Shown: positions 1,874-53,266 of the stretch, piece by piece
Layout of the letters: every line of letters begins with the position of its first letter
How positions within the stretch are numbered: the stretch's first letter is position 1
Assembly: GCA_041674765.1 (NCBI GenBank)
Contig: JBAYVE010000001.1
Span: 198,177 to 262,176 of the forward strand
Direction: 5' to 3'
DNA from: Patescibacteria group bacterium
GTDB lineage: Bacteria; Patescibacteriota; UBA1384; XYA2-FULL-43-10; 1-14-0-10-43-13
Length of the DNA: 64,000 nt
Program-made: the position numbers and the translations under genes
Notes under the pieces: generated by a model
Told to the model about the DNA's origin: nothing
The model's database searches: none
Seen by the model: only the letters and a program-made list of their open reading frames with translations

Positions 1874-2902
1874 ATGAATGAAGAAGAAATAAGGCCTGAA
1901 GCTGATCTACTGGTGCCAAGCAAGAAGCCGGTTTGGCTCTTTGTTGTTATTGGCTTGATCATAATTGTCGGGGTTGGCATTTTGACATATTCGCTAGGTA
2001 AAGCAAAGCCGGCGAAAAACAGCGATGACAGTATTATTAAGACGGAAAATGAGACAAAGGATCTGCCGGCTGCTACTTCGGTTGACGACAGCCCGTACAA
2101 TTGGTCGACGATGGATCAGGGGCCATACAATGACAAGATTTCCTACGCCACAAGCACTGATCTTTTGAACTGGAAGGATTCCGGCAAGATTCTCGCCACT
2201 CATGCCAGCGTACCGGACTTAGTTATGAAAGACGGCACGATTTTTGCCTACTTTGTCGATGTTTCGACTGATGGCGTTGCCGAACAGACAGGGATGGTCA
2301 AATCAACAGATGGAGGAATTACCTGGAGCGAGAGGCAGATCATTAATATTGAGGGTATTGGTGACAAAGCGGTTGCTGATCCGGCTCCAATTTTATTGTC
2401 AGACGGACGAATCCGCCTTTTCTATTTTGATATCAAGGAAAATAGAATTAGGAAGCAAAAGGGACCTAGCACCAACAAAATTTACTCCGCCATTTCCTCC
2501 GATGGGGTAAATTTCACCCAAGAAGATGGCGTCCGGTTCGAGTACGAAATGGTTTTTGATCCCGATGTGATTAAAATCTCTGATAATTTATGGCGGATGT
2601 ATGTCGGAGACGGCGAGGGTCAAAAAGTTTTGTCGGCGACTTCGACTGACGGCCTGACCTTTACCTATGAGGGGATTGCTTTCTCTGGCGGAGCCATCCC
2701 GAATGTAATATTTGAGAATAACAGATATTATCTCTTTACAGTCGGCATCGAAATCTCTACTTCTCCTGATGGTAAAATATTCACAAAAGCTCCAAACCGT
2801 TTTGACAGTGGAAAACTAACTGCCGATCCTGGAGTTATCAAAATTGCTGAGGGCAAATATTTGATGGTCTACAAGACAAGCGAGATGAAGCCAAAAATAT
2901 AA
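1874..2902 (+). CDS. membrane-anchored Asp-box (BNR) beta-propeller protein, glycosidase/sialidase-like
   Basis: SD AGAGGGG precedes the ATG. N-terminal TM helix. Asp-box motifs STDGGITWSE, SSDGVNF, STDGLTF, SPDGKIF. Paralog of 13378..14457. Confidence 0.5.
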   Translation: MNEEEIRPEADLLVPSKKPVWLFVVIGLIIIVGVGILTYSLGKAKPAKNSDDSIIKTENETKDLPAATSVDDSPYNWSTMDQGPYNDKISYATSTDLLNWKDSGKILATHASVPDLVMKDGTIFAYFVDVSTDGVAEQTGMVKSTDGGITWSERQIINIEGIGDKAVADPAPILLSDGRIRLFYFDIKENRIRKQKGPSTNKIYSAISSDGVNFTQEDGVRFEYEMVFDPDVIKISDNLWRMYVGDGEGQKVLSATSTDGLTFTYEGIAFSGGAIPNVIFENNRYYLFTVGIEISTSPDGKIFTKAPNRFDSGKLTADPGVIKIAEGKYLMVYKTSEMKPKI

Positions 2903-3980: not shown

Positions 3981-5381
3981 TTAAAAGTAAAGATCTCGTT
4001 CGCCTAATTCGAGTTTTTGTAGGCGTTCCCTGGTTTTATTTGCCACTTCTTTTGAGGGGATTAATCCTAAATATTTTTGGATGATGTTTTCACCTTTCCT
4101 CTTAACTTCCGGCGTAGCAAAATCGATCAAGTATTCCTTGAACGTAAGAATTGCATTTGGACGGCAGAAATTATGGATATTTCCAGGCTTCGCTATCTCC
4201 ATAAAATCTTTGCCGGTACGGTGGCTTCGATAGCAAGCGGTACAAAAAGAGGGGAGCAAGCCCTGCTTCAGGAGGCCTTCGACTACTTGATCCAGTGTCC
4301 GTTCATCGTTTACGACGAATTGAACTTCATGATCGGGGATCAAACTTTTATCTTTTTTTTCGCTATATCCGCCAACTTCGACACGGGAGGCGGCACTAGT
4401 CTGAGAGATGCCAAGCTTGAAAGCTTTTAATCTGGTTTCTGGTTTTTCTCTGGTCGAGATAATCATCCCAGTATACGGGACAGCCAGACGTAGGATAGCA
4501 ATAATTTTTAGCAGTTCATCTTCGGTGACAGGATATGGTGGCTTGAAATCGACAGTTGCAGCCGGCCTGAAACGGGGGACTGAGATAGTATGAGGGCCGA
4601 CGCCAAAAACCTTGTCCATATATTGGGCATGTGAGACAAGAGCCAAGACTTCAAATTGCCAATCATAAAGACCGAAAAGAACGCCGATGCCGAGATCGTC
4701 GATTCCGCCGGCAAAAGCATTGTTATGAGCAAAAAGCTGACGTTCATATTCTGCCTTGGGACCATTATGTAACTTCTCAAAAGTTGGCCTGTGATAAGTT
4801 TCCTGGAAAAGTTGATAGGTGCCGATCCCTGAATCTTTCAATTTTCGATAATTTTCCGCTGTAGTGGCAGCGATGTTTACATTAACACGGCGAATTTTGT
4901 TCGGTCCGACATTTACCTTATAGATCTCGTTGATGACCTTAACAACATAATCAATAGGGCATTCAAGAGGATGTTCGCCAAATTCCAAAAGTAGACGCTT
5001 ATGTCCCATTTTGATTAGGATCTCTGTCTGTTCGCGAACTTCTTGCAGAGTTAATTTTCGCCTTGGCAGGTTGTTCCTTCGGTGAAAGCCGCAATATTCG
5101 CAGTCGTTGACGCAAAAATCAGAGACATAGAGCGGGGCAAAAAGAACGATCCGTTCGCCATAAATTTCCTGCTTGATTTTCCAGGCTGTATCGAAGATCT
5201 CTTTGATTAATTTTGGTTCTTTGCAACCGCAAAGTAAACCGACCTCGGAGAGGGTGAGCCCTTTTTTCTTTTCCGCTTTCCTTAGAATAGCCTTGATTTG
5301 TAGTGGTTTTGGATTCGATGACCGCTTCAAGACATCATCAATCAGTTGTTCATCAATAACTTCTTTTACGTTTTTTCCCAT
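3981..5381 (-). CDS. hydG: radical SAM protein of the ThiH/HydG family; the C-terminal CX2CX22C motif suggests a HydG-like tyrosine lyase
   Basis: Radical SAM motif CVNDCEYCGF (CX3CX2C). Length 466 aa. C-terminal CTAC-(22 aa)-C matches the auxiliary-cluster motif of HydG. Confidence 0.55.
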   Translation of the reverse strand: MGKNVKEVIDEQLIDDVLKRSSNPKPLQIKAILRKAEKKKGLTLSEVGLLCGCKEPKLIKEIFDTAWKIKQEIYGERIVLFAPLYVSDFCVNDCEYCGFHRRNNLPRRKLTLQEVREQTEILIKMGHKRLLLEFGEHPLECPIDYVVKVINEIYKVNVGPNKIRRVNVNIAATTAENYRKLKDSGIGTYQLFQETYHRPTFEKLHNGPKAEYERQLFAHNNAFAGGIDDLGIGVLFGLYDWQFEVLALVSHAQYMDKVFGVGPHTISVPRFRPAATVDFKPPYPVTEDELLKIIAILRLAVPYTGMIISTREKPETRLKAFKLGISQTSAASRVEVGGYSEKKDKSLIPDHEVQFVVNDERTLDQVVEGLLKQGLLPSFCTACYRSHRTGKDFMEIAKPGNIHNFCRPNAILTFKEYLIDFATPEVKRKGENIIQKYLGLIPSKEVANKTRERLQKLELGERDLYF

Positions 5382-6422: not shown

Positions 6423-6675
6423 TGCTATTGCTCCTTCTGGGGAATTTGCTCTTCAAATGGAAGAACAGTCTATTTTGTTATATCGAACATGTTAAGTCAA
6501 GCAATATAAAGCTGTATATGCAGTTATGGAGGTAGCGGATACTTAAAAGCCGATTAAAAGTTTTGTCAAAAAAATAATAATTATTGTCCCAAAATAGTAA
6601 CATTCTCCAATTCTTGTGATGGCAAGATGGTTTAGATTACTAGAAGAACGATTGGGCCATATGAAGGAGGTATCT

Positions 6676-7200
6676 ATGGCGAAATTAGTTCTTGCTATCG
6701 TAATTGCGGTAGCGCTTGTCGGTGTTTTCGGTTGCGACGGCGGTGATAGCGATAGCGTCCCCACGCTAAAGGGAGTCGCCAATATTCATGCGGAAAGCGT
6801 GAAGCCGAGGGTCGGGGCGCTCGCGCTGAATTCACAGAGCGAATTCTATTCCGTAACTTCGACAGGCACCAAGAAATCCAGCAGCGGTTGGCAGGATGTG
6901 AACTTCACGCTTCCGCTACCCATCGGACGTTCGCGCGAAGTCTATGCGCTCGCGGCGTACAATGATCTCGATGGCAATCAGGCCTATGAGACCGGTGAAC
7001 TGCTCGGATTTTGCAGCCACTTCCTGGTCGGTCCGGACTCGGACGGCAAATTCCAGATCGTCAGCTCTGGAAATCAGGTCATCAAAGCTGACGCCACTAA
7101 ATGCTCGGGTCGCGATGTTTACATTGATTGTCTATTCACCAAAAAAACATCCGTCCAGGACATCGTCGAGAGCTACAAAAAGATTCAGAGTGCCTTGTAG
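6676..7200 (+). CDS. lipoprotein (lipobox VFGC), GC-rich gene
   Basis: Strong SD GAAGGAGGT 6 nt before the ATG at 6676. Signal peptide MAKLVLAIVIAVALVGVFGC. The 6616 start offered by the ORF track is rejected. Confidence 0.55.
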   Translation: MAKLVLAIVIAVALVGVFGCDGGDSDSVPTLKGVANIHAESVKPRVGALALNSQSEFYSVTSTGTKKSSSGWQDVNFTLPLPIGRSREVYALAAYNDLDGNQAYETGELLGFCSHFLVGPDSDGKFQIVSSGNQVIKADATKCSGRDVYIDCLFTKKTSVQDIVESYKKIQSAL

Positions 7201-7229
7201 CATTCTGGCGGCTTCTGCCGCATTTTCCG

Positions 7230-7268
7230 GTGCCGCCCCATGTCGGGCGGCATCTTTTGTGATTTCCT
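7230..7268 (+). terminator. rho-independent terminator after the lipoprotein gene
   Basis: Hairpin GCCGCCCCATGTCGGGCGGC followed by TCTTTTGTG. Confidence 0.45.
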
Positions 7269-7321
7269 TATTCCTCACTAGAAACTCATCTTATGATAAA
7301 ACAAAACTTCAATTATAAAAA

Positions 7322-7356
7322 ATCCGGATCGCCCCAGAAGGGTGGGGCGATCCGGC
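7322..7356 (-). terminator. rho-independent terminator for 7362..7745
   Basis: Perfect hairpin CCGGATCGCCCCAGAAGGGTGGGGCGATCCGG with a T-run on the minus strand. Confidence 0.6.
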
Positions 7357-7361
7357 AGGTA

Positions 7362-7745
7362 TTAGAAGCGTCCATCGAAGAGGCGCTTTCTGAAAGGGCG
7401 GCCATCGATTTGCTCCATCTTGTAGAGAATATATCTCTTGCCGATTCTCCAAAAAGGGATATGAATCGAGAGATGATAGACAATCGTCTCACGGTCTTTA
7501 AAACGGTTGGCCATTTGTGCGATAAGGAGACTCGGATAATCGCCGAAGAAAACGATCATCAGGGATTTTGCTGGTAGGGCATTTCTCTCCAGACCGAATA
7601 AACTATCCGGTGATAGGATTTTGAGTTCGCCGACATCCTCAATCAAATGCCATTCTATCGCTTGGAGTAAAACGCGGCGGCTTAAGGAAAACCTCATATC
7701 AACCTGTTGTGCCCTCATTGAGTCGTGGATAATGAACATACTCAT
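7362..7745 (-). CDS. hypothetical protein
   Basis: ORF with SD GGAGGGAGG upstream of the ATG (MSMFIIHD..). The GTG start at 7754 offered by the track is less likely. Confidence 0.4.
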   Translation of the reverse strand: MSMFIIHDSMRAQQVDMRFSLSRRVLLQAIEWHLIEDVGELKILSPDSLFGLERNALPAKSLMIVFFGDYPSLLIAQMANRFKDRETIVYHLSIHIPFWRIGKRYILYKMEQIDGRPFRKRLFDGRF

Positions 7746-7910
7746 AATAGGCACCTCCCTCCTGTAAAATAATCTTTATTAGTGCAAAAATAATTGGACT
7801 AATTTCCAAAGAGTATGTTTTTGGCGATATGTATTTCTTCACATACTTTCTTGTTGTCTGTTATTCTTCTGGCTACCTCTGATACAATATAAACATCTTA
7901 ATTATGCTTA

Positions 7911-10040
7911 TTGGGAGATTTCAAGATGAGGGGAAAAATAAGAATCAAGTTGCCGCTCTGGGCAAAAATCACTCTGGGTGCGCTGGCTTTGATGATCTGC
8001 TTATTAATAGCGCTATCTATAATTATGCGCCTTTCTCCAATCAAGATCGGCGTACTTTTGAATCTGAGCGGACCGGAGTCTTTGCCCTATAGACAAGTTC
8101 TTGAGTGGGCCCGTGAAAACACTGGCCGGAATATCGAGCTTGTTTATGTCGACTCGAATGGCGGCGATATTATGGAAAAAGCCAAGACGCTTTTGGACGA
8201 TCACAGCATTCGTGTGGTGATCGGACCGCAAAACTCTGACGAAGCGATGGCCTTGGCTCCGCTCTTTATTGAAAAGAAGAAATTGCTAATCAGTCCGACC
8301 ACTACCTCTGGCGATCTCTACCGGGCGTTCGCAGGAGAGGAATATTTCTGGCGGACAGTCGAATCAGATGTGGCTCAAGCCAGAACAATTATGGATATTC
8401 TGGCCGAGAAGGGCACAAAAAAAGTCGCTCTAGTCTATGCCGACACTTCTTATGGCAAAACTTTTTACGATTGGATCGGCTTCTATGCGACTGAAAAAAA
8501 TATTGAGGTGACTTCGATTCAGGCGCTAAAGACAAACCCGGATTATGATACTTTGGCCGCCAATGCGGCCATGGGCGAGCCCGACTATATTATTTTGACT
8601 ATGCCTCCCAAAGATTCGATCGAGCTGAAAAACCGCTTCGACAAAAACAACGTAAAATCGAAACTTTTTCTAACTGACTTGAGTCAATTTGATTCTCTGA
8701 TAGCAGAGCTTGGCGAGAGAGCTGAGGGCTTAGAATCTACCGGCCCTTCAACTGATCCAGAAAGCGGATTTGAGAAAGCTTACAGGGAAAGATTTAGTGA
8801 AGACCCGCCGATCATGATGGCTTCGACCTATGACGCCTTTATGATGGCGGCTACAACTCTCGCGAGACAAGAATACGCTCATAGATATTCACTTCTACCT
8901 TTTTCCGTCAAGGAGAATACTGCTACATCTCTTAAGCAAATTCTTTTTGGTGATATTGGCGGCAATGAATTTCGCTGGGATGAACTTGGACCAATGCTTG
9001 ATGATATTGGCCGCGGCAATATTCCTACATTGACAGGCGCTACCGGCATCGTTGCCTACGACAAAGAGAAAGGGGTTGATCCGGTCGGCACCTTTTACGC
9101 TTACTCGATTGTGAAAGACGGCAAATTCCACATCGAGCGCTTGATTTCCGCCAACAAGGGCAGAACCGTTTCGGCCGCCGGCACTATTGCAAGCGATCAT
9201 TTGGCCTATATTTCCGATACTGATACACAAACCAATTTGCCGGAGAAGAAGGATCTGCAAGCCGTTATCATTGCCACGACCGACCAATGGCAAAACTATC
9301 GCCATCAATCCGACGCCTTTGCCATGTATCAGCTGCTTAGAAGTAATAATGTCCCTGATGATAAAATCACACTCTTTTTGATCGACGATATCGCAAATTT
9401 TTCGAAAAATAATCCAAAACCCAGTCTCTTCCATATCAAAGACGGCTCGGATAATTACTCAAGCTCGGCAATTGATTTTTCGGGGGATAAAGTGACGGCC
9501 GAGAATCTAAAACAAACTCTTCTAAATTTGGACAGCGACAACCAAACAAATTTACTGGTTTATGTTGCCGGCCATGGCGGGACGGGTAGCAATTCTACTG
9601 ATTCAGCCAATAATCAGCTTGGAGATGAGGGGATCATCCGCTTCTCCAATGGCAATAATATGACCTCGACCGAATTAAAATCCGTCATTGAAGAAATGGC
9701 TGGCAAGCAAAAATACCGCCAGATGATGGTAGTCTTAGAGACCTGTTTTAGCGGCGCAATGGGTAAGGATATCACAACTCCAAATGTCCTCTTTATGACT
9801 GCGGCCTCCGATCAGGAGGTCTCCTATGGCGCCAACTATAGCCCGAAGATCAAACAGTGGCTCGCAGATAATTTTACTTACCAATTAATCGCCCAAATCA
9901 ATAAGGATCCCGAATCTTCAATCGCCGACCTTTACAGTAAGGTGTACAAAAATGTCCCCGGCTCCCATGTAACGCTATTGAATTGGAAAAACTTCGGCAA
10001 CCTGACAAAAACACCGATCAGCAGCTTCTTGAGACCGTAA
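7911..10040 (+). CDS. fusion protein: N-terminal TM anchor, type-I periplasmic binding protein-like (Leu/Ile/Val-binding, ANF-receptor-type) domain, and C-terminal peptidase C13 (legumain/GPI8-like) domain
   Basis: TM helix ITLGALALMICLLIALSIIM. PBP1 signatures IKIGVLLNLSGPESL..VVIGPQNSDEAMALAPL. C-terminal NYRHQSDAFAMYQ..DDIA, catalytic-type VYVAGHGG and ETCFSGAMG, matching the legumain His/Cys dyad context. Confidence 0.7.
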   Translation: MGDFKMRGKIRIKLPLWAKITLGALALMICLLIALSIIMRLSPIKIGVLLNLSGPESLPYRQVLEWARENTGRNIELVYVDSNGGDIMEKAKTLLDDHSIRVVIGPQNSDEAMALAPLFIEKKKLLISPTTTSGDLYRAFAGEEYFWRTVESDVAQARTIMDILAEKGTKKVALVYADTSYGKTFYDWIGFYATEKNIEVTSIQALKTNPDYDTLAANAAMGEPDYIILTMPPKDSIELKNRFDKNNVKSKLFLTDLSQFDSLIAELGERAEGLESTGPSTDPESGFEKAYRERFSEDPPIMMASTYDAFMMAATTLARQEYAHRYSLLPFSVKENTATSLKQILFGDIGGNEFRWDELGPMLDDIGRGNIPTLTGATGIVAYDKEKGVDPVGTFYAYSIVKDGKFHIERLISANKGRTVSAAGTIASDHLAYISDTDTQTNLPEKKDLQAVIIATTDQWQNYRHQSDAFAMYQLLRSNNVPDDKITLFLIDDIANFSKNNPKPSLFHIKDGSDNYSSSAIDFSGDKVTAENLKQTLLNLDSDNQTNLLVYVAGHGGTGSNSTDSANNQLGDEGIIRFSNGNNMTSTELKSVIEEMAGKQKYRQMMVVLETCFSGAMGKDITTPNVLFMTAASDQEVSYGANYSPKIKQWLADNFTYQLIAQINKDPESSIADLYSKVYKNVPGSHVTLLNWKNFGNLTKTPISSFLRP

Positions 10041-10077
10041 TACTGATTCAGGAGAATACCCTCCTTACCTTATTGTC

Positions 10078-10130
10078 AAAACCGCCGTGCCACGCCGTAG
10101 CTCCGCCAGCTGGCGGAAGCGAAGGATGGT
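10078..10130 (-). repeat. interspersed core-repeat copy (reverse orientation) with a CCGCCAGCTGGCGG palindrome
   Basis: AAACCGCCGTGCCACGCCGTAGCTCCGCCAGCTGGCGGAAGCGAAGGATGG. Inverted partner at 11180..11219. Confidence 0.5.
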
Positions 10131-10403
10131 ACTTAATTATGTAGCGTCCCCTAACCCCTATAAATTCAGAATCTTCAACATGGAACTCTTGAAGTTTGAA
10201 CAGTTTAATGAAACAACTTTCCGTGGGTAGGCTCCTTGTATTAACTTGCTGGTTATCACAATTAGTCTACCCTTTTTCGTTTTAAGCATAAAACGAGATT
10301 GGTAGTACCACATTATTTAGTATAGAGCCAGTTAATTCTTGATAGATTATTCATTTTATGCTATGGATACTAGTATCAAACCCAGGGCAAGGAGGGTATC
10401 ATA

Positions 10404-11012
10404 ATGCCTGACAACTTACGAGACGCAGTCGACCTGCTGCTCAAGCTTCGGCCTTCTTATGTGAAGGCAGTCTGCTATCTGCTTCAGGATCTAGCCGGAG
10501 CCTCCTGTGAAAGTGCTCTTGAATTCTTCAGGTCTGTCCTTGTACAGGAATACTGGACAACAACAGTTCCCAGTGTCGAGACATTCGACGTTGGCGCACA
10601 TTTCAGAAAAGGAGAAACTGACGGTGTGAAGATTGCTTATTTTGGAATCATCAGTCCTTTGCAGATAGATGGTATCGTCGAGGAAAATGTCCCAGAGCAA
10701 ACCCTTGGATTCTGTCAGACAAAAAGGGCTTGTGGCTTTGCGGAGATTGCCGATGCTTTCCATCAACCTACTACCACCTACTTTGCTCATATCTGGAGTC
10801 TGATGAAGGAAGAAGCCCCAGAGTTCATGGGTGAATCAAAGTCATTCATTGTAGAAGTGGCGGGAAAAAAGCTGCATGTTTCCTGCAGTGATAGCGAAGG
10901 CACCTCCTACAATGATAAAGGGTGGCACATACATATCTGTATCTTGGGCGAGGAGGGGTATATTCAGCACAAAGGTACAAAGGTTGCTTTCCCACTCTTT
11001 TTGGAGCAGTAG
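10404..11012 (+). CDS. hypothetical protein (GC-rich relative to neighbours)
   Basis: 202-aa ORF with SD AAGGAGGGT upstream and a strong terminator downstream. Confidence 0.45.
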   Translation: MPDNLRDAVDLLLKLRPSYVKAVCYLLQDLAGASCESALEFFRSVLVQEYWTTTVPSVETFDVGAHFRKGETDGVKIAYFGIISPLQIDGIVEENVPEQTLGFCQTKRACGFAEIADAFHQPTTTYFAHIWSLMKEEAPEFMGESKSFIVEVAGKKLHVSCSDSEGTSYNDKGWHIHICILGEEGYIQHKGTKVAFPLFLEQ

Positions 11013-13377: not shown

Positions 13378-14457
13378 CTATTTATACTCCGCATAGTAGA
13401 TACCTTTTTCGTGCTGGCCGAAGTACATAAACCAATTATCACTGATCTTTATAAAAGTCGGGTCACTCGCTGGATTGGCTACAAATACAACTGATTTATC
13501 ATTGTTGTTGGTCCAGACAAATTCCGGGGTGGAGAAAGTGCCATTTTCATATTTGGAGTGATAAATACCATTATAGCTCCAAAAATAAGCACGAATCTCT
13601 GTCTCGCCGGTCGCTTCATTTGTCCAGCTAACAAATTCTCCGCCATCAGCAAAATTATACAATTCATCATTTCGCGAATCGATTGCCAGTCCCTTCTTTT
13701 CAAAAGTAAGCCCATCATTTGAAATTGCATAGAAATATATCTGCGTGTTGTTATTTGGAACCTTCATCGTGCCTTGATAAGGCTGATTGATAGTACCGCG
13801 ATAAATCATAAGATAGGTGCCATCCGAAAGCTGAATAGTGGAAGTTGCGCCGACATTTTCTAGAGTAAAGCCAGTCTCATCTTTATCTATTCTAGCACCA
13901 GCTTCATCAGTGAACTTTAGTCCATCAATAGAAACTGCACTTTTGACCACGCCGCTATTTTGAAAATACATTCGCCATCGGCCATCCGGAAGTTTTATAA
14001 CATCAGCAAAGGTCGATTTTCGCTTTATTTCTCCTTCATCTGTCCAATTGATTCCATCAGAAGAAACCGCCGAGAATACACGCGCTTGGAAATCGTTTAC
14101 TTCTGGCTCTTCTGAGTAGTACATCCGATATTGGCCGTTACCCGGATCAACGATTTCAGAATCAGCGTATTTACCGGCAATGGCCACGCCGCCCTCCTGC
14201 CAAGTCTTAGCTATCTCGGTGGTACCGATAGTAGAGTCATCTTCGTTGGCAACGGTTTCTTTGGCATCTTTGGGCCACAAAAAGTAGGCAGCCGCCCCTA
14301 CCACGATAAGGACTGCAATAAGCAAGATAATCAGCCCTAGTTTCTTTTTGTTGCCATTAACTTCAATAGCTTCTATTTCCTGATCCATTTCCCTCCAAGT
14401 ATATTTATAAATATTTAGTTGATGCTTGCTTATTCGTGTAGCGCCCTCGCTTTGCAT
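13378..14457 (-). CDS. membrane-anchored Asp-box (BNR) beta-propeller protein, paralog of 1874..2902
   Basis: N-terminal TM helix. SSDGINWTDEGE, SIDGLKF, SNDGLTFEKKG Asp-box-like repeats. Confidence 0.5.
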   Translation of the reverse strand: MQSEGATRISKHQLNIYKYTWREMDQEIEAIEVNGNKKKLGLIILLIAVLIVVGAAAYFLWPKDAKETVANEDDSTIGTTEIAKTWQEGGVAIAGKYADSEIVDPGNGQYRMYYSEEPEVNDFQARVFSAVSSDGINWTDEGEIKRKSTFADVIKLPDGRWRMYFQNSGVVKSAVSIDGLKFTDEAGARIDKDETGFTLENVGATSTIQLSDGTYLMIYRGTINQPYQGTMKVPNNNTQIYFYAISNDGLTFEKKGLAIDSRNDELYNFADGGEFVSWTNEATGETEIRAYFWSYNGIYHSKYENGTFSTPEFVWTNNNDKSVVFVANPASDPTFIKISDNWFMYFGQHEKGIYYAEYK

Positions 14458-14463
14458 ATTTAG

Positions 14464-16182
14464 CTAATTCTTTTTCACATAATCGGCAAAATACGCCGGA
14501 TTGAGTTTTTCTCCGGTTGATTTTTCTATCATTTTTTGCCAGGGATATTTGGCGCCGAGTGAAAAGACTTCTCTTTGGAAATATTCGCCGATCTTTTTCT
14601 CTCCCGAGTAGCTTGCAAACTTTTCAGAACCTTTTGCTATGTTGTTATCAATATAGTGGCGAAATTGAGCGGACAGGAGATAGCCAAGCATGTAGTTATG
14701 ATAATATACCGGTGTCTGGATAACATGTATTTTGGTTGCCCAGTCGGGCATATCACGATTCTCCGGCCGGTTTACGAGCTGGTATTTCTCTACCAAACCC
14801 CACCACAGTTTATTCAAATCCTGATCGGGGTTTTCGTACATTGCTTTCTCGAAGCGATACATTACCTGCGTCCAGCGTGAAAAAATCAAAGCGTTCAAAC
14901 GATTGTATTCCGAAGCAGCGGAGCTAACTTCAGCGATTTTACCCGCCTCAATGTCAAAACTTCCTTTCACCCACTCAGGAGAATAGACCATATCTTCAAA
15001 AAAGAGGGCGACGGCTTCGGTGGTAAAAATATGAGCCGGCGTTCGAAGTTCCCACGGCAACTGTGGATCTATTTTTTGGTCGTACAGAGCGTGGCCAAAT
15101 TCGTGAAGCGATTTTGCCATCCAATAATTGTTGTTTTCCAGATTGACAATCACTCGGATATCATCGCGTCTGTCCATATTAAAGGCGACGGCATGCTGGT
15201 ATTTTCCGTCTCTCTGATAGAGATCGCTTTTTTCTGCCAACGGATCGATAGGCAATCCTAAGCTATTGAAATAATCTTTGGCCAAAGTCAACACATTCTT
15301 ATCTTTGTACAATTCATCCAAGTCGACGCTCAAGATGCGAGGTACTTCCTGAAAATAGCGGTTTTGATAGTGCCAAGGACGAAGATCCTCTACTTTAATC
15401 TGATATTTTGAGGCGAGCGCCTCGTCGATTGACGCTTTTGCCTCCGCATAAATTTCTCCGGTTGCGAGATCCAAATCGTCAAAGATCTTGTCCATCTCTG
15501 TGGGATCCTGCTCCGAGAGGGTCAGTGTCATCTTTTGAAAATCGGAAAAGCCTAGATCGCGAGCGATTTCGTTTCTGATTTTCGCCATTTTCACAATCTC
15601 TTGGCTGGTTAGATCGCCGATTTTTTTGCTTGCCTCCCAAACTTCTTTTAATTCATTCGAATTTGTCGAGGTCTTTAAGATATTTTCCACTTCGTTATCA
15701 GTGATTTCTTTCCCATTCAAAGAAGGTCGAAAGGTATTAAACTTCTGCTCGAGTTCACTTTGAGTTATTGTAATTTTCTCAATTTTTTTCTCATCTGATT
15801 GACTGGATATAAAACCAGCGTACTGGATATCCAATTGCCGTTTCAGAAGAGGGTCTTTGATATGACCGGCTTCTTTCCATTTTTTTAGCTTCAAAAAAGC
15901 ATCCTTATCCAAGAAAATCTTTTCCATTTGCAGATTTAGTTCAGTCGATTTCTTGTAATCTTCCTCCCGGCCGGAGGCCAAAGCAGTAAAATATGCGATG
16001 TTGGCTTCCTTTTCCAGGGGGATAATACGGTTTTCGTATGAGGCAAGAAATTCTTTGTACCCGGCTTCTGCCCGATAAGTTTTTGCTACCGGATATCCCA
16101 CGATAACAAATAAAATAGTAGCTACCAGAGACGTTAAAACATACCATAGAATTTTTTTTATTTTAAACATTTCCTCCCTCAT
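14464..16182 (-). CDS. zinc metallopeptidase, M3 (oligoendopeptidase F)-like or M32-like, with N-terminal TM anchor
   Basis: HEFGHALYD zinc-binding motif. 572 aa. N-terminal hydrophobic helix. Confidence 0.55.
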   Translation of the reverse strand: MREEMFKIKKILWYVLTSLVATILFVIVGYPVAKTYRAEAGYKEFLASYENRIIPLEKEANIAYFTALASGREEDYKKSTELNLQMEKIFLDKDAFLKLKKWKEAGHIKDPLLKRQLDIQYAGFISSQSDEKKIEKITITQSELEQKFNTFRPSLNGKEITDNEVENILKTSTNSNELKEVWEASKKIGDLTSQEIVKMAKIRNEIARDLGFSDFQKMTLTLSEQDPTEMDKIFDDLDLATGEIYAEAKASIDEALASKYQIKVEDLRPWHYQNRYFQEVPRILSVDLDELYKDKNVLTLAKDYFNSLGLPIDPLAEKSDLYQRDGKYQHAVAFNMDRRDDIRVIVNLENNNYWMAKSLHEFGHALYDQKIDPQLPWELRTPAHIFTTEAVALFFEDMVYSPEWVKGSFDIEAGKIAEVSSAASEYNRLNALIFSRWTQVMYRFEKAMYENPDQDLNKLWWGLVEKYQLVNRPENRDMPDWATKIHVIQTPVYYHNYMLGYLLSAQFRHYIDNNIAKGSEKFASYSGEKKIGEYFQREVFSLGAKYPWQKMIEKSTGEKLNPAYFADYVKKN

Positions 16183-18364: not shown

Positions 18365-19030
18365 TTAACTTAACGGTTCAAATTTCTTCCATTTGCCCTC
18401 GGAAATCACCTCTATTCGGCCATCTGTTACGGCAACTGCCGAGTTGTCATCAATAGCATAAAAAGTTGATTTCAATTCATCCGCCAACACCTGAACTGTC
18501 TCATCTGTATATTGAGGACGGTTTGGATTGTAAAAGTGAGGCCTGATGCTGAAATCGACATATTCTAAGCCCTTGTCTCCTTCGAATTCTGGAATTTCCT
18601 CAACATATTTCTTAGGTGCTGTTGAAACGATCACCTTCCCCAAAATTACAGAGCCGGCGCTGCAACCAACATAAACTTTTTCTTTAATCAAATCCTTCAG
18701 AATTTCTGTCAAACCGGCTTTCTCCATCCAGTAAATCAAATGGTATGGGTTACCTCCGCCAACCATGATTGCATCGGCTTGTTTTAGTCTTGGAAGCCAG
18801 ATTTCTTTTGGGATGGCGGAAAACTCAACAATATCTATCTTCCCGATTTTCATCTGATCGAGTTCGATTAAATTCTTGATAATCCAACGTTTATCAGTCG
18901 GTTTGGCCACGTTTACGGCTGTTGGAATATAAGCAACAGTCAAATCTTGCGGCGGTTTGCCGACCATCTCGAGAAATTTATTTTCTATCGATTTATTTGT
19001 AATACCTGTCGAGGTTAAAAGTAATTTCAT
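18365..19030 (-). CDS. peptidase S51 (dipeptidase E / cyanophycinase-like) family protein
   Basis: LLTSTG..YIPTA..GGNPYHL..VGCSAGSVI, 221 aa. Confidence 0.7.
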   Translation of the reverse strand: MKLLLTSTGITNKSIENKFLEMVGKPPQDLTVAYIPTAVNVAKPTDKRWIIKNLIELDQMKIGKIDIVEFSAIPKEIWLPRLKQADAIMVGGGNPYHLIYWMEKAGLTEILKDLIKEKVYVGCSAGSVILGKVIVSTAPKKYVEEIPEFEGDKGLEYVDFSIRPHFYNPNRPQYTDETVQVLADELKSTFYAIDDNSAVAVTDGRIEVISEGKWKKFEPLS

Positions 19031-47789: not shown

Positions 47790-47866
47790 CAGCCGTTAGA
47801 CAGGCCTTCCGAGTATTCGGGAGGCCTGCATTTATAGTTTTAAGATATTGGTGTTATAATTGATCT

Positions 47867-48355
47867 ATGGTTTCGATTCTGATTTTTATATTTCTTTTGG
47901 TTTTGCTCCTTTTGGGACTGCTGGGAGTAATTTTGCCGATGCTTCCAGGCATTCCCCTGATGTTCTTGACGGTGCTGCTTTACGCTATTTTCGATCATTT
48001 CGATCGGATTACGGTTACAAATATTGTTATACTCGGCATCTTTACAGCTCTATCTATATTAACCGACTACGCCTCAGGAATCCTTGGCGCCAAATTTTTC
48101 GGGGCATCGAAACAGGGGATGATTGGCGGCCTCATCGGTGGTATTGCCGGCTTATTTATCTTTCCGCCGTTTGGAATTTTTATCGGGTTATTTTTGGGCG
48201 TCATAGCATCAGAACTATTGCTTACTGGCAAAAAGATAAATCGTGCGATAAAATCAGGTGCCGGAGCCTTGCTCGGATCACTCGCCGGAATCTTAACAAA
48301 CTTTTTGGTCGGGTTGATATTTATTATCTATTTTATCTTTGGCTTTTGGCGATGA
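47867..48355 (+). CDS. DUF456-like small membrane protein
   Basis: Four TM helices, with GIPLMFLTVLLYAIFDHFD. Confidence 0.5.
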   Translation: MVSILIFIFLLVLLLLGLLGVILPMLPGIPLMFLTVLLYAIFDHFDRITVTNIVILGIFTALSILTDYASGILGAKFFGASKQGMIGGLIGGIAGLFIFPPFGIFIGLFLGVIASELLLTGKKINRAIKSGAGALLGSLAGILTNFLVGLIFIIYFIFGFWR

Positions 48356-50436
48356 AAAAAAAGAAGAATCAATTAGTAATTGCAATTTCCGGAGTTTCCG
48401 GAGCAGGGAAAGGGACACTGCTCGATTTTTTGCGTGATATGAAGGAGACTTTTTGCAATGTACCTTCCTATACAACAAGAGCCAAGAGACCGGGCGAGGC
48501 AGAGGGCACAAATCGTTTTTTTATTTCCGAAGAAGAATTTGATGCGGGTATAAAGGCCGGTGAATTTATCGAATGGGAGAAAGTCCATCAATACCGCTAT
48601 GGCCGGAAAAAGAAGGACGTCGAAGCGGCGATAGAGAGCGGCAAAATCCCTTTTATGGAGATTGATGTCAAAGGCACGCAAAAGTTCAAAAAGATATTTC
48701 CCGGACTCGTCAGTATTTTTATATTGCCACCAAGTTTTGAAGAAGCAATGAAAAGAGTTCGAAACAGGGGAGCTGAATCCGAGGAGGACATTAAACTTCG
48801 AGCTTCGCGCTATGAAATGGAAACATCTTATAAAAATGCCTATGATCATATTCTGATCAATGATGATTTGAATAAAGCCAAGGCCGATCTTCTGTCGATC
48901 ATTCGCAAAGAGGAAGAGAAATTAAGAAAAAGTCAATTTGATCTGAGACATTCGATTTTGATCGGTCTGGGAGCGTTGTTTCTAACAACTTTTTTCACGG
49001 TGGCTGCGGCAGCTTCACTTCTGCTGACCGGAACGATGAGCGAGCAGACAAAGGAAAACAAAATTTTACAAACGGAGGAAGAAGCCCAAACTCCCGAGCC
49101 CGAGGTAGTCGAGGCCATTCCATCTGTAGAAGAAATATCCAAGGAAGTCGCCAAAAATCCTCCAAAACGCACAGCTCCGATAAACTCGGGGCAGACAACC
49201 ACAAATAGCGACGGAACTAAAACCACGGTTGTTTCGACCGGCGGAGGCCTCGGCGATCTGAGTGGCGTCTTATCCAGCAATGTGAGTGCTAGCACTCCAT
49301 ATGGGGTTCCCTACAGGGATGAGACTGGAGAATATTCTAATTTGGGTACTGTCTTGAAGGACTATCTAAATAACAGTCTTCGCTGGAAGAACGAGATTAC
49401 TGCCTTGAAGGAGATTGTATTGCGGAATGCCGGCAATACCGGATGGAGTGGCCAGTATCTTGGCCAATATACGGCAGATTCCAGTGGGAAGATTACAAAT
49501 GCTAGTGGTGTCATCGTTTTGAATGCCTATTATGGAAGCGGCTCCAACTTTATTGAGGATATGAAATTGGTTTTTTCCCATGAATATGGGCATCACTATA
49601 CGCTTTATCATAAATGGGTGGATTGGAGTTTGCCAAATGGTGTACGCTTTCCTGATAGCTACTATCAACTAAGAGGACTCTCCAAAACAACAACTTCAAC
49701 AGACTACTCGAAAGGATGGATCAATTGCGAATCTGAAATCATTGCCGAGGACTATTCTTACCTCTATTCCGGCTATGGCTATAGCGGAGTAGCGGATATC
49801 TATGGTCTTCCTTCCTCTGCAGTTAGAAATTGGCTGGACAAAATCGGTGATAGTTCGCTTTTGAATACTATTGTTAATCAGGCGCCAACAATTAATATAA
49901 TTTCGCCAGCTCCCGCCGCTGTACTTTCTGGTACTTTTTCATTTTCAGCTGAAGCTAGTGACGATATTGGAATTTCAAAGGTCTCTTTCTATATCGATAA
50001 CACTTTGATCCTTGAGGATACAAAGGCACCGTATGCTGTCGAGATCAATACATCAAGTTTCCAAAACGGCCAGTATAATCTTCGGGCTGTAGTTTCAGAT
50101 GGCACTTTGTCGGCTGAAAAGATTACGGCTGTCACTTTGCAAAATAATGTGGTTGATCTGGAGAAACCTGTAGTTACTATTATTTCACCTACTGAAAACC
50201 CTCAAATTCTGAAAAATGATAATTTAACTCTAAATGTTACAGCAACAGATAATAATCGGATTGATCGGATCGAACTCTATCTTGATGACGAAAAGCAAAA
50301 CAGTTGGAAGCTTGCGGATCTCTCACTACGGGTCTCATTCAAAAATTTCCCTGTTGGGAACTATACTCTAAAATTTAGAGCTTTCGATGAGGCGGGGAAT
50401 TATGGTGATGCCACACTTCAAGTAGTCAAAATTTAA
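48352..50436 (+). CDS. gmk: fusion protein: complete guanylate kinase domain + TM helix + extracytoplasmic HExxH (zincin-like) region + two Ig-like domains
   Basis: ATG overlaps the upstream stop (ATGA). Gmk motifs ISGVSGAGKGTLL, YTTRAKRPGEAEGTNRFFISEEEF, EIDVKGTQK. TM ILIGLGALFLTTFFTVAAAASLLLTG. FSHEYGHHYTLYH. Two ~100-aa Ig-like repeats (..ISPAPAAVLSGTFSFSAEASDDIGISKVSFYID.., ..IISPTENPQILKNDNLTLNVTATDNNRIDRIELYLD..). Confidence 0.55.
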   Translation: MKKKKNQLVIAISGVSGAGKGTLLDFLRDMKETFCNVPSYTTRAKRPGEAEGTNRFFISEEEFDAGIKAGEFIEWEKVHQYRYGRKKKDVEAAIESGKIPFMEIDVKGTQKFKKIFPGLVSIFILPPSFEEAMKRVRNRGAESEEDIKLRASRYEMETSYKNAYDHILINDDLNKAKADLLSIIRKEEEKLRKSQFDLRHSILIGLGALFLTTFFTVAAAASLLLTGTMSEQTKENKILQTEEEAQTPEPEVVEAIPSVEEISKEVAKNPPKRTAPINSGQTTTNSDGTKTTVVSTGGGLGDLSGVLSSNVSASTPYGVPYRDETGEYSNLGTVLKDYLNNSLRWKNEITALKEIVLRNAGNTGWSGQYLGQYTADSSGKITNASGVIVLNAYYGSGSNFIEDMKLVFSHEYGHHYTLYHKWVDWSLPNGVRFPDSYYQLRGLSKTTTSTDYSKGWINCESEIIAEDYSYLYSGYGYSGVADIYGLPSSAVRNWLDKIGDSSLLNTIVNQAPTINIISPAPAAVLSGTFSFSAEASDDIGISKVSFYIDNTLILEDTKAPYAVEINTSSFQNGQYNLRAVVSDGTLSAEKITAVTLQNNVVDLEKPVVTIISPTENPQILKNDNLTLNVTATDNNRIDRIELYLDDEKQNSWKLADLSLRVSFKNFPVGNYTLKFRAFDEAGNYGDATLQVVKI

Positions 50437-50889: not shown

Positions 50890-53142
50890 ATGTTCACAAA
50901 AATCCGGAAAAGAAATGGCAAACTTGTCGATTTCGATGCTGAAAAAATTGCAACAGTCATAGCCAAAGCTGGTAAAGCCGCAGGTGAGTTCGACGAAGCG
51001 GTTGCCAAAAAGCTGGCAGACAAAGTCCTGAGGGAGGCACCGGAAAAAATCAGGCGCAAAATTCCGACGGTAGAGGAGATACAAGATATCGTCGAAGACG
51101 TTTTATTGACGTCTAAATATAAAGCGACAGCGAGGGGATACGTTATCTACCGTCAGAAACACGCTGAAATGCGTGAATTAGCTGAAACTCAAAGAGTCGA
51201 TCTGATGGATCAATATTTGAAAAATCTTGACTGGCAGGTCAAGGAGAACTCCAATATGGCTTATTCGCTTCAGGGGTTAAACAATTATATTTCCTCCGAA
51301 GTTTCGAAAAGCTACTGGTTGCACAAAGTTTACACTCCAGAAGTCGCCCGTGCCAATTCTGAAGGCGATATGCATATCCATGACCTAGATAAGCTCTCGA
51401 CCTATTGTGTCGGCTGGGACCTTCAGGATCTCTTGCGCGAAGGTTTTAAGGGTGCTGAAGGCAAGATCGAGTCGAAGCCTGCAAAACATCTCAAAACTGC
51501 CTTGGGCCAGCTTGTAAATTTCTTCTACACAATGCAGGGCGAGTCAGCCGGGGCTCAGGCCGTTTCTAATTTCGATACCCTGATGGCACCATATATTCGC
51601 TATGATAAGCTCTCGGTCAAAGAGGTCAAACAGAGTTTGCAGGAATTCATGTTCAATATGAATGTGCCAACGAGAGTTGGTTTTCAGACACCTTTTACTA
51701 ATGTGACGATGGATTTGATTTGCCCGAGCACTTTGGCTGACGAACCGGTTATCTCGGGGGGGCAACCTCAAAAGGAGACCTATAAAGAGTTCCAAAAAGA
51801 GATGAATATTTTCAACGAAGCCTTTACTGAAGTTATCTCTGAGGGCGACGCCAGAGGCCGTGTTTTTACTTTCCCGATCCCTACTTACAACATCACCAAG
51901 GATTTTGACTGGAGCAACAAAGAAATCGACGGGGTTTGGAAGATGACCGCTAAATATGGAATTCCTTATTTCTCAAACTTTGTAAATTCCGATATGAGTC
52001 CTGAAGATGCCCGAAGCATGTGTTGCCGTCTCCGTCTGGATAATCGCGAGCTTCGGAAACGCGGCGGCGGACTATTCGGCGCAAATCCGCTGACTGGTTC
52101 TGTCGGCGTGGTAACAATCAATTTACCCAGACTCGGTTACCGTTCAAGGGACAAAAGAGAATTCCTCTACAATCTTTCCTATGTCATGGATCTGGCCAAA
52201 GAGAGTCTCGAAATGAAGCGTAAAGTTTTGGAGAATATGACCGAAGCCGGACTCTATCCTTACACCAAATTCTATCTGCGCAATATTAAAAAGAGAGACG
52301 ATCGTTATTGGGGCAACCATTTCTCGACCATCGGCCTCTTGGGTATGAATGAAGCTTGTCTGAACCTTTTCGGCCGTGATGTTACAACGGCAGAAGGTCA
52401 GCAGTTTGCCAGAGAAGTGCTCGAATTTATGCGCGAGAGAATGGCTGTTTACCAAAATGAAACCGGTAATTATTACAACTTGGAAGCAACTCCGGCCGAA
52501 GGCACCTCCTTCCGTTTGGCGTTAAAAGACAAAGAGAGATATCCGGACATTATGGTCGCCAATGAAGGACAATATCAAGATCAAAAAGTCTCTCCATATT
52601 ATACCAATTCATCCCACGTCCCCGTTGATTTTACGGATGATGCCTTCGAACTGCTTGATCTCCAAGATGATCTACAGACAAAATATACCGGCGGTACGGT
52701 GGTCCATCTCTTTGTCGGAGAAGAAATAAAGGATACTACGGCAGTCAAAAACTTTGTTCGGACAGTTTGTGAAAATTATCATCTACCATACTTCACGATC
52801 ACTCCGACCTTCTCTATCTGCCCAAACCACGGTTATATCGCCGGCAAGGTGATGACCTGTGAAAAGTGTGGTGCCGCGAACGAAGTTTACTCACGAATAG
52901 TTGGTTATATCCGCCCTATTCAGCAGTGGAATGCCGGCAAACGGGCCGAATTTGATGACCGCCAGACTTACCATATTGAGGTTAAGAAGAACAAAGAAGA
53001 AGAAAGCGCAACTGAAGAATTATCATTTGTTGATCAGATCAAAGATAAAGCGGACGAGATCAAGGAGAAAATTGCCGATGTTGTGATAGAGCCGGCTTTA
53101 GCGGAGGTGGGAGCAGACTCGGAACAAGCAGCACTGGTATAG
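50890..53142 (+). CDS. nrdD: anaerobic ribonucleoside-triphosphate reductase (class III)
   Basis: SD GGAGGGAG. N-terminal ATP-cone (KIRKRNGKLVDFDAEKI). C-terminal Zn ribbon CPNHG..CEKCG. Glycyl-radical motif RIVGYIR. Confidence 0.9.
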   Translation: MFTKIRKRNGKLVDFDAEKIATVIAKAGKAAGEFDEAVAKKLADKVLREAPEKIRRKIPTVEEIQDIVEDVLLTSKYKATARGYVIYRQKHAEMRELAETQRVDLMDQYLKNLDWQVKENSNMAYSLQGLNNYISSEVSKSYWLHKVYTPEVARANSEGDMHIHDLDKLSTYCVGWDLQDLLREGFKGAEGKIESKPAKHLKTALGQLVNFFYTMQGESAGAQAVSNFDTLMAPYIRYDKLSVKEVKQSLQEFMFNMNVPTRVGFQTPFTNVTMDLICPSTLADEPVISGGQPQKETYKEFQKEMNIFNEAFTEVISEGDARGRVFTFPIPTYNITKDFDWSNKEIDGVWKMTAKYGIPYFSNFVNSDMSPEDARSMCCRLRLDNRELRKRGGGLFGANPLTGSVGVVTINLPRLGYRSRDKREFLYNLSYVMDLAKESLEMKRKVLENMTEAGLYPYTKFYLRNIKKRDDRYWGNHFSTIGLLGMNEACLNLFGRDVTTAEGQQFAREVLEFMRERMAVYQNETGNYYNLEATPAEGTSFRLALKDKERYPDIMVANEGQYQDQKVSPYYTNSSHVPVDFTDDAFELLDLQDDLQTKYTGGTVVHLFVGEEIKDTTAVKNFVRTVCENYHLPYFTITPTFSICPNHGYIAGKVMTCEKCGAANEVYSRIVGYIRPIQQWNAGKRAEFDDRQTYHIEVKKNKEEESATEELSFVDQIKDKADEIKEKIADVVIEPALAEVGADSEQAALV

Positions 53143-53266
53143 GCGGGAACACCCAAATCTCAAGTACCAAATAACAAATAAATTCCAATGCCCAAAAATA
53201 AAATATTGGAATTTGATGATTTTAAGATTTATTTGGTACTTGTTATTTGTAATTTATTATTTAACT

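Follow-up and report, generated by a model that had tools for sequence, protein, structure and literature searches.

What does a bacterium do with a protein that joins a ligand-binding domain to a legumain-type protease? The question is raised by the gene found on the + strand at 7911..10040 of a 64,000-nucleotide stretch of a Patescibacteria group bacterium genome (assembly GCA_041674765.1, contig JBAYVE010000001.1, positions 198,177 to 262,176), here called the window, meaning this whole stretch. A preliminary description, made from the sequence without database searches, had proposed that the product carries a type-I periplasmic binding protein (PBP) domain of the Venus-flytrap kind at its N-terminus and a cysteine peptidase of family C13 at its C-terminus, that a transmembrane helix anchors it outside the membrane, and that the architecture was undescribed. 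The analysis reported here confirms the fusion, referred to as PBP-C13, and assigns it to a widespread family. The combined picture that we favour, with a probability of roughly 0.5, is that of an Asn/Asp-specific surface peptidase or transpeptidase, which would work near neutral pH and would be targeted or gated by a flytrap that binds an amino-acid-like ligand or the end of a substrate. Taken alone, the narrower proposal of a C13 peptidase active on the cell surface is much more secure.

The region is a single unbroken open reading frame (ORF), and all the motifs quoted in the preliminary description are present in its translation. The mechanical start of the ORF is a TTG codon at 7911, in frame upstream of an ATG at 7926. 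The ATG is the likely true start of a coding sequence that ends with the stop codon at 10040, because a Shine-Dalgarno sequence, GGGAGA, lies 8 nt upstream of it and because the resulting product of 704 amino acids is identical to the deposited NCBI protein MFA7253124.1, 'MAG: C13 family peptidase [Patescibacteria group bacterium]'. The frame originally described is thus real and continuous, while its start is to be moved. Residue numbers given below refer to the 704-residue protein, with the exception of Pfam residue ranges, which follow the 709-residue numbering from the TTG. Two assemblies made independently of each other, ENA ERZ27247358 (365-kb contig) and Logan SRR6484325 (11-kb contig), encode the identical protein. 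An artefact, in which an error of sequencing or assembly near 9200 would have joined a PBP gene to an adjacent C13 gene, had been named as a possible objection; nothing was found in its favour, and it was rejected on the strength of the two assemblies, of at least 540 loci across many phyla which encode a relative, and of the long C13 representatives described below. The frame is continuous, the linker between the domains is ordered in the structural model, and the loci kept for comparison nearly all match both domains, so that such an error can practically be dismissed. Recent horizontal transfer was also considered on the basis of composition and rejected, since the GC content of the gene is merely 1.0 standard deviation (SD), and that of its third codon positions 1.2 SD, above the ORFs of the window.

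Comparison with Pfam revealed both proposed domains. Peripla_BP_6 (PF13458) matches residues 43-320 with E 5.4e-32 and 112 bits, against a cut-off of 31.7, and ANF_receptor (PF01094, E 2.7e-16) also exceeds its curated cut-off; Peptidase_C13 (PF01650) matches residues 451-689 with E 5.9e-45 and 154.3 bits, against a cut-off of 22.8, and is covered from position 3 to 241 of 258. A phmmer search of the PDB matched human legumain (E 2e-24), GPI8/PIGK (E 5e-22) and plant asparaginyl endopeptidases and ligases, and related the N-terminal half to Leu/Ile/Val-type binding proteins (4mlc/4q6b, E 4e-10, and 3td9). An AlphaFold2 model of the 704-residue chain, built on 118 homologs, has a mean predicted local distance difference test score (pLDDT) of 93 and a predicted template modelling score (pTM) of 0.91. 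In it, one transmembrane helix (residues 11-36) is followed by the PBP domain (from 39 to about 405), from which an ordered linker leads to the C13 domain (443-704). Poor prediction is confined to residues 552-566. A whole-chain pTM of this size implies that the relative placement of the two domains is confidently predicted and that, in the model, they are rigidly packed.

Foldseek comparison of the model with the PDB gave, for the N-terminal half, target-normalised template modelling scores (TMt) of 0.82 to LivK 3td9, 0.79 to 4mlc and 0.79 to 3ip5, and, for the C-terminal half, 0.86-0.89 to human legumain 4aw9/7fqi (root mean square deviation 1.6-1.9 Å over ~280 columns) and 0.71 to PIGK 8imx_K. 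No solved structure in the PDB spanning both halves was found by Foldseek, the top query-normalised score (TMq) being 0.43. The C-terminal half belongs to family C13 by all testable features of sequence and fold (PF01650, the caspase-hemoglobinase fold, the His-Gly, Cys and Asn42 residues and the S1 pocket). The N-terminal half, in turn, is a type-I PBP of the LIVBP/HAAT group (PF13458) by sequence and fold, not by linkage to a transporter. Pfam detected no Legum_prodom/LSAM domain (PF20985), and the C13 domain reaches the end of the protein. Membership of a defence system was considered and rejected: PADLOC gave no match, and the weak match to the NCBIfam model caspase_w_EACC1 (22 bits against a cut-off of 140) reflects generic clan-CD similarity.

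The predicted topology agrees with that first proposed. The transmembrane helix is preceded by the basic sequence MRGKIRIK, positive inside, because of which the short N-terminal tail is assigned to the cytoplasm and all the rest of this single-pass protein to the outside of the membrane. The cytoplasmic tail measures about 10 residues, and therefore any output must be extracellular. In the model the PBP domain begins ~2 residues past the helix. ANF-receptor and class-C G-protein-coupled receptor flytraps share the two-lobe type-I fold, but ANF-receptor sensors carry a cytoplasmic signalling domain after the transmembrane segment, while the output domain of PBP-C13 is an extracellular protease; lacking a cytoplasmic output, PBP-C13 is not a sensor of the ANF-receptor type.

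Conservation was evaluated on alignments of 37 and 118 full-length homologs, and the counts given here refer to the larger one; roles of the catalytic and S1-pocket residues in legumain and PIGK are taken from PMC8491156 and PMC9098846, and those of the regulatory legumain positions from PMC8491156. The two residues singled out in the preliminary description, the His of VYVAGHGG (H550, legumain His148) and the Cys of ETCFSGAMG (C607, legumain Cys189), lie within the C13 fold and in invariant columns (118/118 each). The Gly next to the former (G551, legumain Gly149) is kept in 117 sequences and N457 (legumain Asn42) in 113. Among the residues of the S1 pocket, R459 and H460 (legumain Arg44/His45; PIGK R60/H61) are each found in all 118, as is an acid at the position of E605 (legumain Glu187; PIGK D204), and D648 (legumain Asp231; PIGK D247) in 116. 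By alignment, the zwitterionic S1 pocket (R459, H460, E605 and D648) is intact, and so is the catalytic triad of legumain, N457/H550/C607.

The register of these assignments needed care. A direct phmmer alignment of the window protein with legumain sets His148 opposite wrong residues, owing to a 15-residue insertion, GTGSNSTDSANNQLG, and the register was fixed via the family alignment and the insertion-free homolog P0010, which matches 4aw9 with E 3e-37 and whose segments 'YIVDHGLNGSILF' and 'IEACYGES' align with 'IYFTDHGSTGILVF' and 'IEACESGS' of legumain. The insertion is rich in Asn, Ser and Thr, is modelled with low confidence and is common only to the closest relatives (P0003 in the alignment).

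Eukaryotic legumain (human 4aw9) has the fold of the C13 domain of PBP-C13 (TMt 0.87, root mean square deviation 1.7 Å, about 26% identity), and the two agree in the Asn-His-Cys triad, in the oxyanion element His-Gly and in the zwitterionic S1 pocket, but they differ in the elements of control. Legumain residues Glu190, Asp147 and Ser215 are replaced by Phe, Gly and Val in the window protein. The position of Glu190, a residue which disfavours thioester formation (PMC8491156), is aromatic or His in 116 of the 118 homologs (608 in the window protein; F in 93, Y in 17, H in 6). That of Asp147, succinimide-forming in legumain, varies (S in 59, D in 33, G in 20, N in 6), the Gly549 of the window protein being like G163 of PIGK; that of Ser215 is occupied by Pro or Val in the family, with a conserved Ser next to it. 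Legumain, which acts in the lysosome or vacuole, has an activation peptide and a C-terminal LSAM prodomain; the prokaryotic, cell-surface PBP-C13 has neither, and carries in place of LSAM an N-terminal transmembrane anchor and a PBP domain of 370 residues. Prolegumain is defined by its C-terminal LSAM prodomain and acid-triggered auto-activation; PBP-C13, having no PF20985 match, falls outside legumain in this strict sense. Because the three residues differ and the LSAM prodomain is missing, the enzyme is probably active without acid activation. A conserved residue of the linker, D/N443, was considered as an autoprocessing site comparable to that of the N-terminal propeptide of legumain; the idea is unsupported, as the position is Gly in 22/118 homologs and turn-like.

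Conservation is equal in the two domains: mean pairwise identity within the family is 55% for PBP and 53% for C13, against 29% in the linker and 26% in the transmembrane segment; amid its overall poor conservation, the linker holds the near-invariant S416 and S423. Within the PBP domain, the near-invariant residues are GPxxS (S104), SPxxT (T127), WRT (142-144), D148, Q151, Y176 and D251, with counts of 117 for S104, 115 for T127, 113 for Y176 and 116 for D251. The GPxxS, SPxxT, WRT and D148 motifs align one-to-one with those of the Leu-binding protein 4mlc/4q6b. The α-amino-acid pocket of LivJ is made up of S79, A100/T102, Y150, Y202 and E226; of these, S79, T102, Y150 and E226 hold the α-carboxylate, α-ammonium and side chain of the ligand. 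We take S104, T127, Y176 and, with an approximate register, D251 to be their respective equivalents, which makes an amino-acid-type ligand plausible for the PBP domain. LIVBP-type substrate-binding proteins (SBPs; LivJ/LivK, 3td9, 4mlc/4q6b) share with PBP-C13 the two-lobe type-I fold and the signature motifs GPxxS, SPxxT, RT...D..Q and YG. They are tied to ABC transporter genes of the LivHMGF type, while PBP-C13 is not so linked, either in the loci surveyed or among the window ORFs scanned.

The window is far from alone in carrying the fusion. A word-indexed search returned 167 homologs, essentially all of ~700 amino acids, containing PF13458 and PF01650, and 36-52% identical. In a scan of species-representative genomes, one per species, at least 540 loci were found to encode a PBP-C13 relative; 82 loci were fetched, and the 80 kept nearly all match over both domains. 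Archaeal carriers include Methanomicrobiales, often with several paralogs per genome, ANME-1, Thermoplasmata and Undinarchaeota. Bacterial ones include Patescibacteria, Actinomycetota (with the cultured Flexivirga alba and Leekyejoonella antrihumi), Chloroflexota, Armatimonadota, Bacteroidota, Myxococcota/'Deltaproteobacteria' and Spirochaetales. With 69% identity to P0002 and 51-52% to P0003, the window protein falls in a clade that is small and divergent. Deposited relatives, such as the Methanoregula 'C13 family peptidase' entries P0062/P0085 and the products of the F. alba and L. antrihumi loci L068/L075, have the same end-to-end architecture at 36-52% identity and share its invariant residues; the window protein differs from them in its private insertion and in its genomic neighbourhood, described below.

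When the C13 domain was used by itself in an exhaustive HMMER search of 1.84 billion cluster representatives, 1,939 matches were obtained at E <= 1e-3 and 1,022 at E <= 1e-10. Among the best 150 representatives, 113 are 600-884 residues long with C13 at the C-terminal end, and PF13458 was found together with PF01650 in all six of the long representatives scanned with Pfam. The few matches with an N-terminal C13 domain are legumains, with a legumain prodomain in three of four (P0227/P0252/P0253); the two bearing a source name, within the same 150, are both from the parabasalid Histomonas. These matches suggest that, among the prokaryotic C13 proteins most closely related to the window protein, the PBP-C13 fusion is the prevailing architecture. 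The architecture is thus already in the databases, where hundreds of homologs share it, automatically named 'C13 family peptidase', 'ABC transporter substrate-binding protein' or 'GPI8/ABC-type BCAA SBP'. The claim that it was undescribed holds for the literature searched, in which we found no paper that deals with the PBP-C13 fusion or with what a prokaryotic legumain does. A review of clan CD merely tabulates the kingdoms where C13 occurs (PMC4357240), and a study of the sediment archaea MBG-D merely lists a putative legumain among putative extracellular peptidases (PMC6461988).

The genomic neighbourhood was surveyed by clustering the flanking ORFs of the 82 fetched loci (BLAST, ±8 kb) and by Pfam scanning of the 144 immediate neighbours of the 80 kept loci. 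No ABC permease or ATPase family is present among the 25 Pfam families commonest in these 144 neighbours, and no ABC transporter component was found among the 30 window ORFs scanned; an ABC-importer operon was rejected on these grounds. BLAST clustering revealed only Bmp and sensor kinases as recurring groups. The only recurrent immediate neighbour is a membrane-anchored binding protein of the Bmp/PnrA type (PF02608), found at ~30 of the 82 loci and absent from the window. Its gene adjoins that of PBP-C13 at, among others, L003 (Methanoregula), L016, L034, L048 (Draconibacterium), L050 and L062. In Methanomicrobiales and Bacteroidota it comes directly after the PBP-C13 gene, whereas in Myxococcota/'Deltaproteobacteria' it lies upstream; it often overlaps the PBP-C13 stop codon. 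The pair is conserved across two domains of life, with no ABC transporter genes alongside. The Bmp-like protein keeps the canonical GDxSF/Y..D and GVDxDQ motifs. Its invariant Asn303 was considered as a legumain cleavage site and rejected, the same Asn being present in canonical BmpA and BmpD.

Cache-domain proteins, two-component systems, a PBP-only paralog and Bacteroidota lipoprotein arrays are sporadic neighbours. The PBP-only paralog (414 residues, Peripla_BP_6), which closely resembles the fused PBP, directly follows PBP-C13 in a metagenome-assembled Thermoplasmata genome (L007, 7848..11290). The arrays follow PBP-C13 and Bmp in Bacteroidota loci (L062, 11284..17467; L063, 5740..9535) and consist of up to six tandem lipoprotein paralogs of ~280 residues that match nothing in Pfam; some of these loci have a LuxR-type response regulator ahead of the pair. 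In Thermoplasmata CP070629.1 a second gene, of 789 codons, lies ~7 kb from PBP-C13 (L004, 17154..18133) and has a faint Peptidase_C13 match; it may represent a different prokaryotic C13 architecture.

Taken together, these data are best accommodated by the following scheme. The flytrap domain would sit directly on the membrane, with the C13 domain packed rigidly against it. The protease would cleave, or transpeptidate, after Asn/Asp in surface or extracellular proteins near neutral pH. Both the acid-switch Glu190 and the C-terminal LSAM prodomain are lacking; the fused flytrap would replace LSAM as accessory module. Since an amino-acid-type pocket appears to be kept, outside any ABC importer, the flytrap may bind either the terminus of a substrate or a small ligand resembling an amino acid, and by such binding target or gate the protease. 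The suggestion of ligand-gated proteolysis, or of a built-in substrate or ligand sensor, made in the preliminary description is a reasonable inference, with which the equal conservation of the domains, their rigid predicted packing and the lack of linked transporter genes are compatible. Several points weigh against the scheme. The equivalent of LivJ Tyr202 is variable in the sequence alignment (F, G, W, Y) and is Pro in the window protein, and the register that sets D251 against LivJ E226 is uncertain by 1-2 residues. No conserved substrate candidate adjoining the gene was found in the 80 neighbourhoods, and the window's own neighbours are lineage-specific orphans, none recurring in the fetched loci. 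As to P1 specificity, PIGK shows that the same S1 composition need not bring strict specificity for Asn (PMC9098846).

The same features may be read in other ways. The protease could serve nutrient scavenging, by freeing peptides or amino acids which the tethered PBP would pass to an ABC importer encoded elsewhere. The PBP domain is in fact nearest to Leu/Ile/Val-type substrate-binding proteins, homologs are often named accordingly, C13 genes have been listed among the putative extracellular peptidases of sediment archaea (PMC6461988), and two further peptidase genes, M2/M32-like and S51, lie nearby in the window. Nevertheless, permease and ATPase genes are missing from the commonest neighbour families and from the window ORFs scanned, the very short tether and rigid packing would make docking to a permease awkward, and a narrow Asn/Asp-specific endopeptidase is poorly suited to bulk degradation; we regard this explanation as rather unlikely. 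Conversely, the PBP domain could bind no ligand at all and act as a structural scaffold, spacer or intramolecular chaperone, stabilising C13 at neutral pH in the way LSAM does in legumain, whose catalytic domain needs LSAM or another partner for stability at that pH (PMC8491156). The rigidity of the predicted two-domain unit and the poor conservation at the Y202-equivalent contact position would fit such a role, but a pure scaffold would have no need of near-invariant GPxxS, SPxxT, Y176 and D251, nor does it explain a PBP domain as conserved as the protease, so that a ligand-free domain seems improbable.

The hydrolytic or ligating nature of the enzyme is a further point to be weighed. In a GPI8- or sortase-like transpeptidase, a thioester would be formed at a C-terminal-proximal Asn/Asp of a surface protein and resolved by an amine nucleophile, an amino acid or a similar compound, held in the PBP domain, and the substrate would be modified or ligated rather than degraded. 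GPI8/PIGK has a C13 fold, a membrane anchor with a non-cytoplasmic catalytic domain and the same S1 composition as PBP-C13, and shares with the window protein the Gly before the catalytic His and the absence of Glu at the legumain-190 position (PMC9098846), while transpeptidase/ligase activity of legumain prevails near neutral pH (PMC8491156). The C13 homologs recovered include PIGK, a transamidase, and peptide ligases; the PBP domain, ~2 residues past the helix, would keep the enzyme near the membrane surface, as in the glycosylphosphatidylinositol (GPI) transamidase, and its pocket keeps residues typical of α-amino-acid binding. Against this, the residue before the catalytic His is variable in the family, the slight advantage of legumain over GPI8 in the scores does not discriminate, and neither a conserved substrate with a C-terminal signal nor partner subunits were found in the 80 neighbourhoods. 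PIGK has a C-terminal transmembrane helix, no fused PBP domain and an obligate five-subunit complex with PIGT, GPAA1, PIGU and PIGS, while the sole transmembrane helix of PBP-C13 is N-terminal; no GPI-transamidase partner genes were found near PBP-C13, Bmp being the sole recurrent neighbour family in the 80 loci. A transpeptidase of this kind is unlikely. More speculative still, and doubtful at best, is the idea that PBP-C13 is the prokaryotic, self-contained counterpart of GPI transamidase or of plant peptide ligases, in which the flytrap would deliver or sense the amine resolving the Asn-thioester, so that surface proteins would be modified or ligated at their C-termini, at neutral pH and in dependence on the ligand, and that the family would also be the stock from which eukaryotic legumain and GPI8 arose. 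The peptidase or transpeptidase targeted or gated by its flytrap, as outlined above, remains our preferred explanation.

Table 1. Location in the window of the PBP-C13 gene, its coding features and the flanking gaps.
Feature	Position	Strand	Basis
Shine-Dalgarno-like GGGAGA, 8 nt upstream of the ATG	7913..7918	+	sequence read directly
Likely coding sequence of the PBP-C13 fusion, 704 amino acids plus stop	7926..10040	+	identical to NCBI MFA7253124.1
Predicted N-terminal signal-anchor transmembrane helix, residues 11-36, after basic MRGKIRIK, no canonical lipobox	7956..8033	+	AlphaFold2 helix, sequence
Type-I PBP/Venus-flytrap domain, residues 39-405	8040..9140	+	Pfam PF13458/PF01094, Foldseek, conservation, 4mlc/4q6b alignment
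Inter-domain linker, residues 406-442, ordered in the model	9141..9251	+	AlphaFold2 model, conservation
Peptidase C13 (legumain/GPI8-type) catalytic domain, residues 443-704, at the end of the protein	9252..10037	+	Pfam PF01650, Foldseek, PDB phmmer
N457-Y-R459-H460: legumain Asn42 (third catalytic residue) and S1 Arg44/His45	9294..9305	+	alignment; roles PMC8491156, PMC9098846
Catalytic His550-Gly551 (legumain His148-Gly149), preceded by Gly549	9573..9578	+	alignment; PMC9098846
15-residue insertion GTGSNSTDSANNQLG, residues 552-566, right after the catalytic His-Gly	9579..9623	+	family alignment, AlphaFold2 model
E605-T-C607-F608: S1 acid, catalytic Cys, aromatic residue at the place of legumain Glu190	9738..9749	+	alignment; PMC8491156, PMC9098846
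D648 (legumain Asp231/PIGK D247), S1 pocket	9867..9869	+	alignment; PMC9098846
Unusually long non-coding gaps around the gene	7200..7911, 10040..10404		ORF list

The features of the gene are collected in Table 1. In the window, wide intergenic gaps lie on either side of it, and the ORFs next to it match nothing in Pfam. Synteny with the closest relatives was considered and rejected: of nine neighbours in the window, not one has a homolog in the loci fetched. Upstream lie a lipoprotein-like ORF (6616..7200, +), with the signal ...LVGVFGC and a GC content of 0.516 (z = +2.7 relative to the window ORFs), and a divergent ORF of 130 amino acids (7362..7754, -) with no Pfam match. Within 10 kb of the C13 gene are found a Peptidase_M2 (ACE-like)/M32-like protein of 572 amino acids (14464..16182, -) and a Peptidase_S51 gene (18365..19030, -).

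Farther out, the window encodes radical-SAM/BATS, cation-efflux and GH43/BNR-like proteins, glycosyltransferases, NrdDG and a Clp ATPase. The radical-SAM and BATS protein (3981..5381, -; 466 amino acids) is HydG/ThiH/BioB-like and lies on a contig attributed to Patescibacteria, and NrdD with its radical-SAM activase (50890..54028) points to an anaerobe. Two ORFs are β-propeller-like, one (1874..2902, +) with weak, sub-threshold GH43/BNR/GH32 matches, the other (13378..14457, -) with an N-terminal hydrophobic segment and no Pfam match at the threshold used. An ORF of 858 amino acids (47860..50436, +) has an unusual architecture, in which a guanylate kinase domain (174-350), an enzyme of cytoplasmic type, is joined to C-terminal Big_7 Ig-like domains (~676-743) of extracellular type.

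The PBP-C13 architecture is known to the databases and appears to be unstudied. Work on legumains and GPI8 has been almost confined to eukaryotes, where these enzymes are controlled either through a switch at acidic pH together with a C-terminal prodomain or within a complex of several subunits. In the family described here, the closest C13 relatives among prokaryotes seem to have, fused to the protease, a ligand-binding flytrap in place of these elements. If the flytrap gates or feeds the protease, the family would link the recognition of small molecules in a new way to proteolysis or ligation outside the cell. Asparaginyl endopeptidases or ligases that have no prodomain and work at neutral pH could also be obtained from it, which would be of interest in protein engineering, and the cultured carriers F. 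alba and L. antrihumi open it to experiment. The family is relevant, too, to the question of how eukaryotic legumain and GPI anchoring arose.

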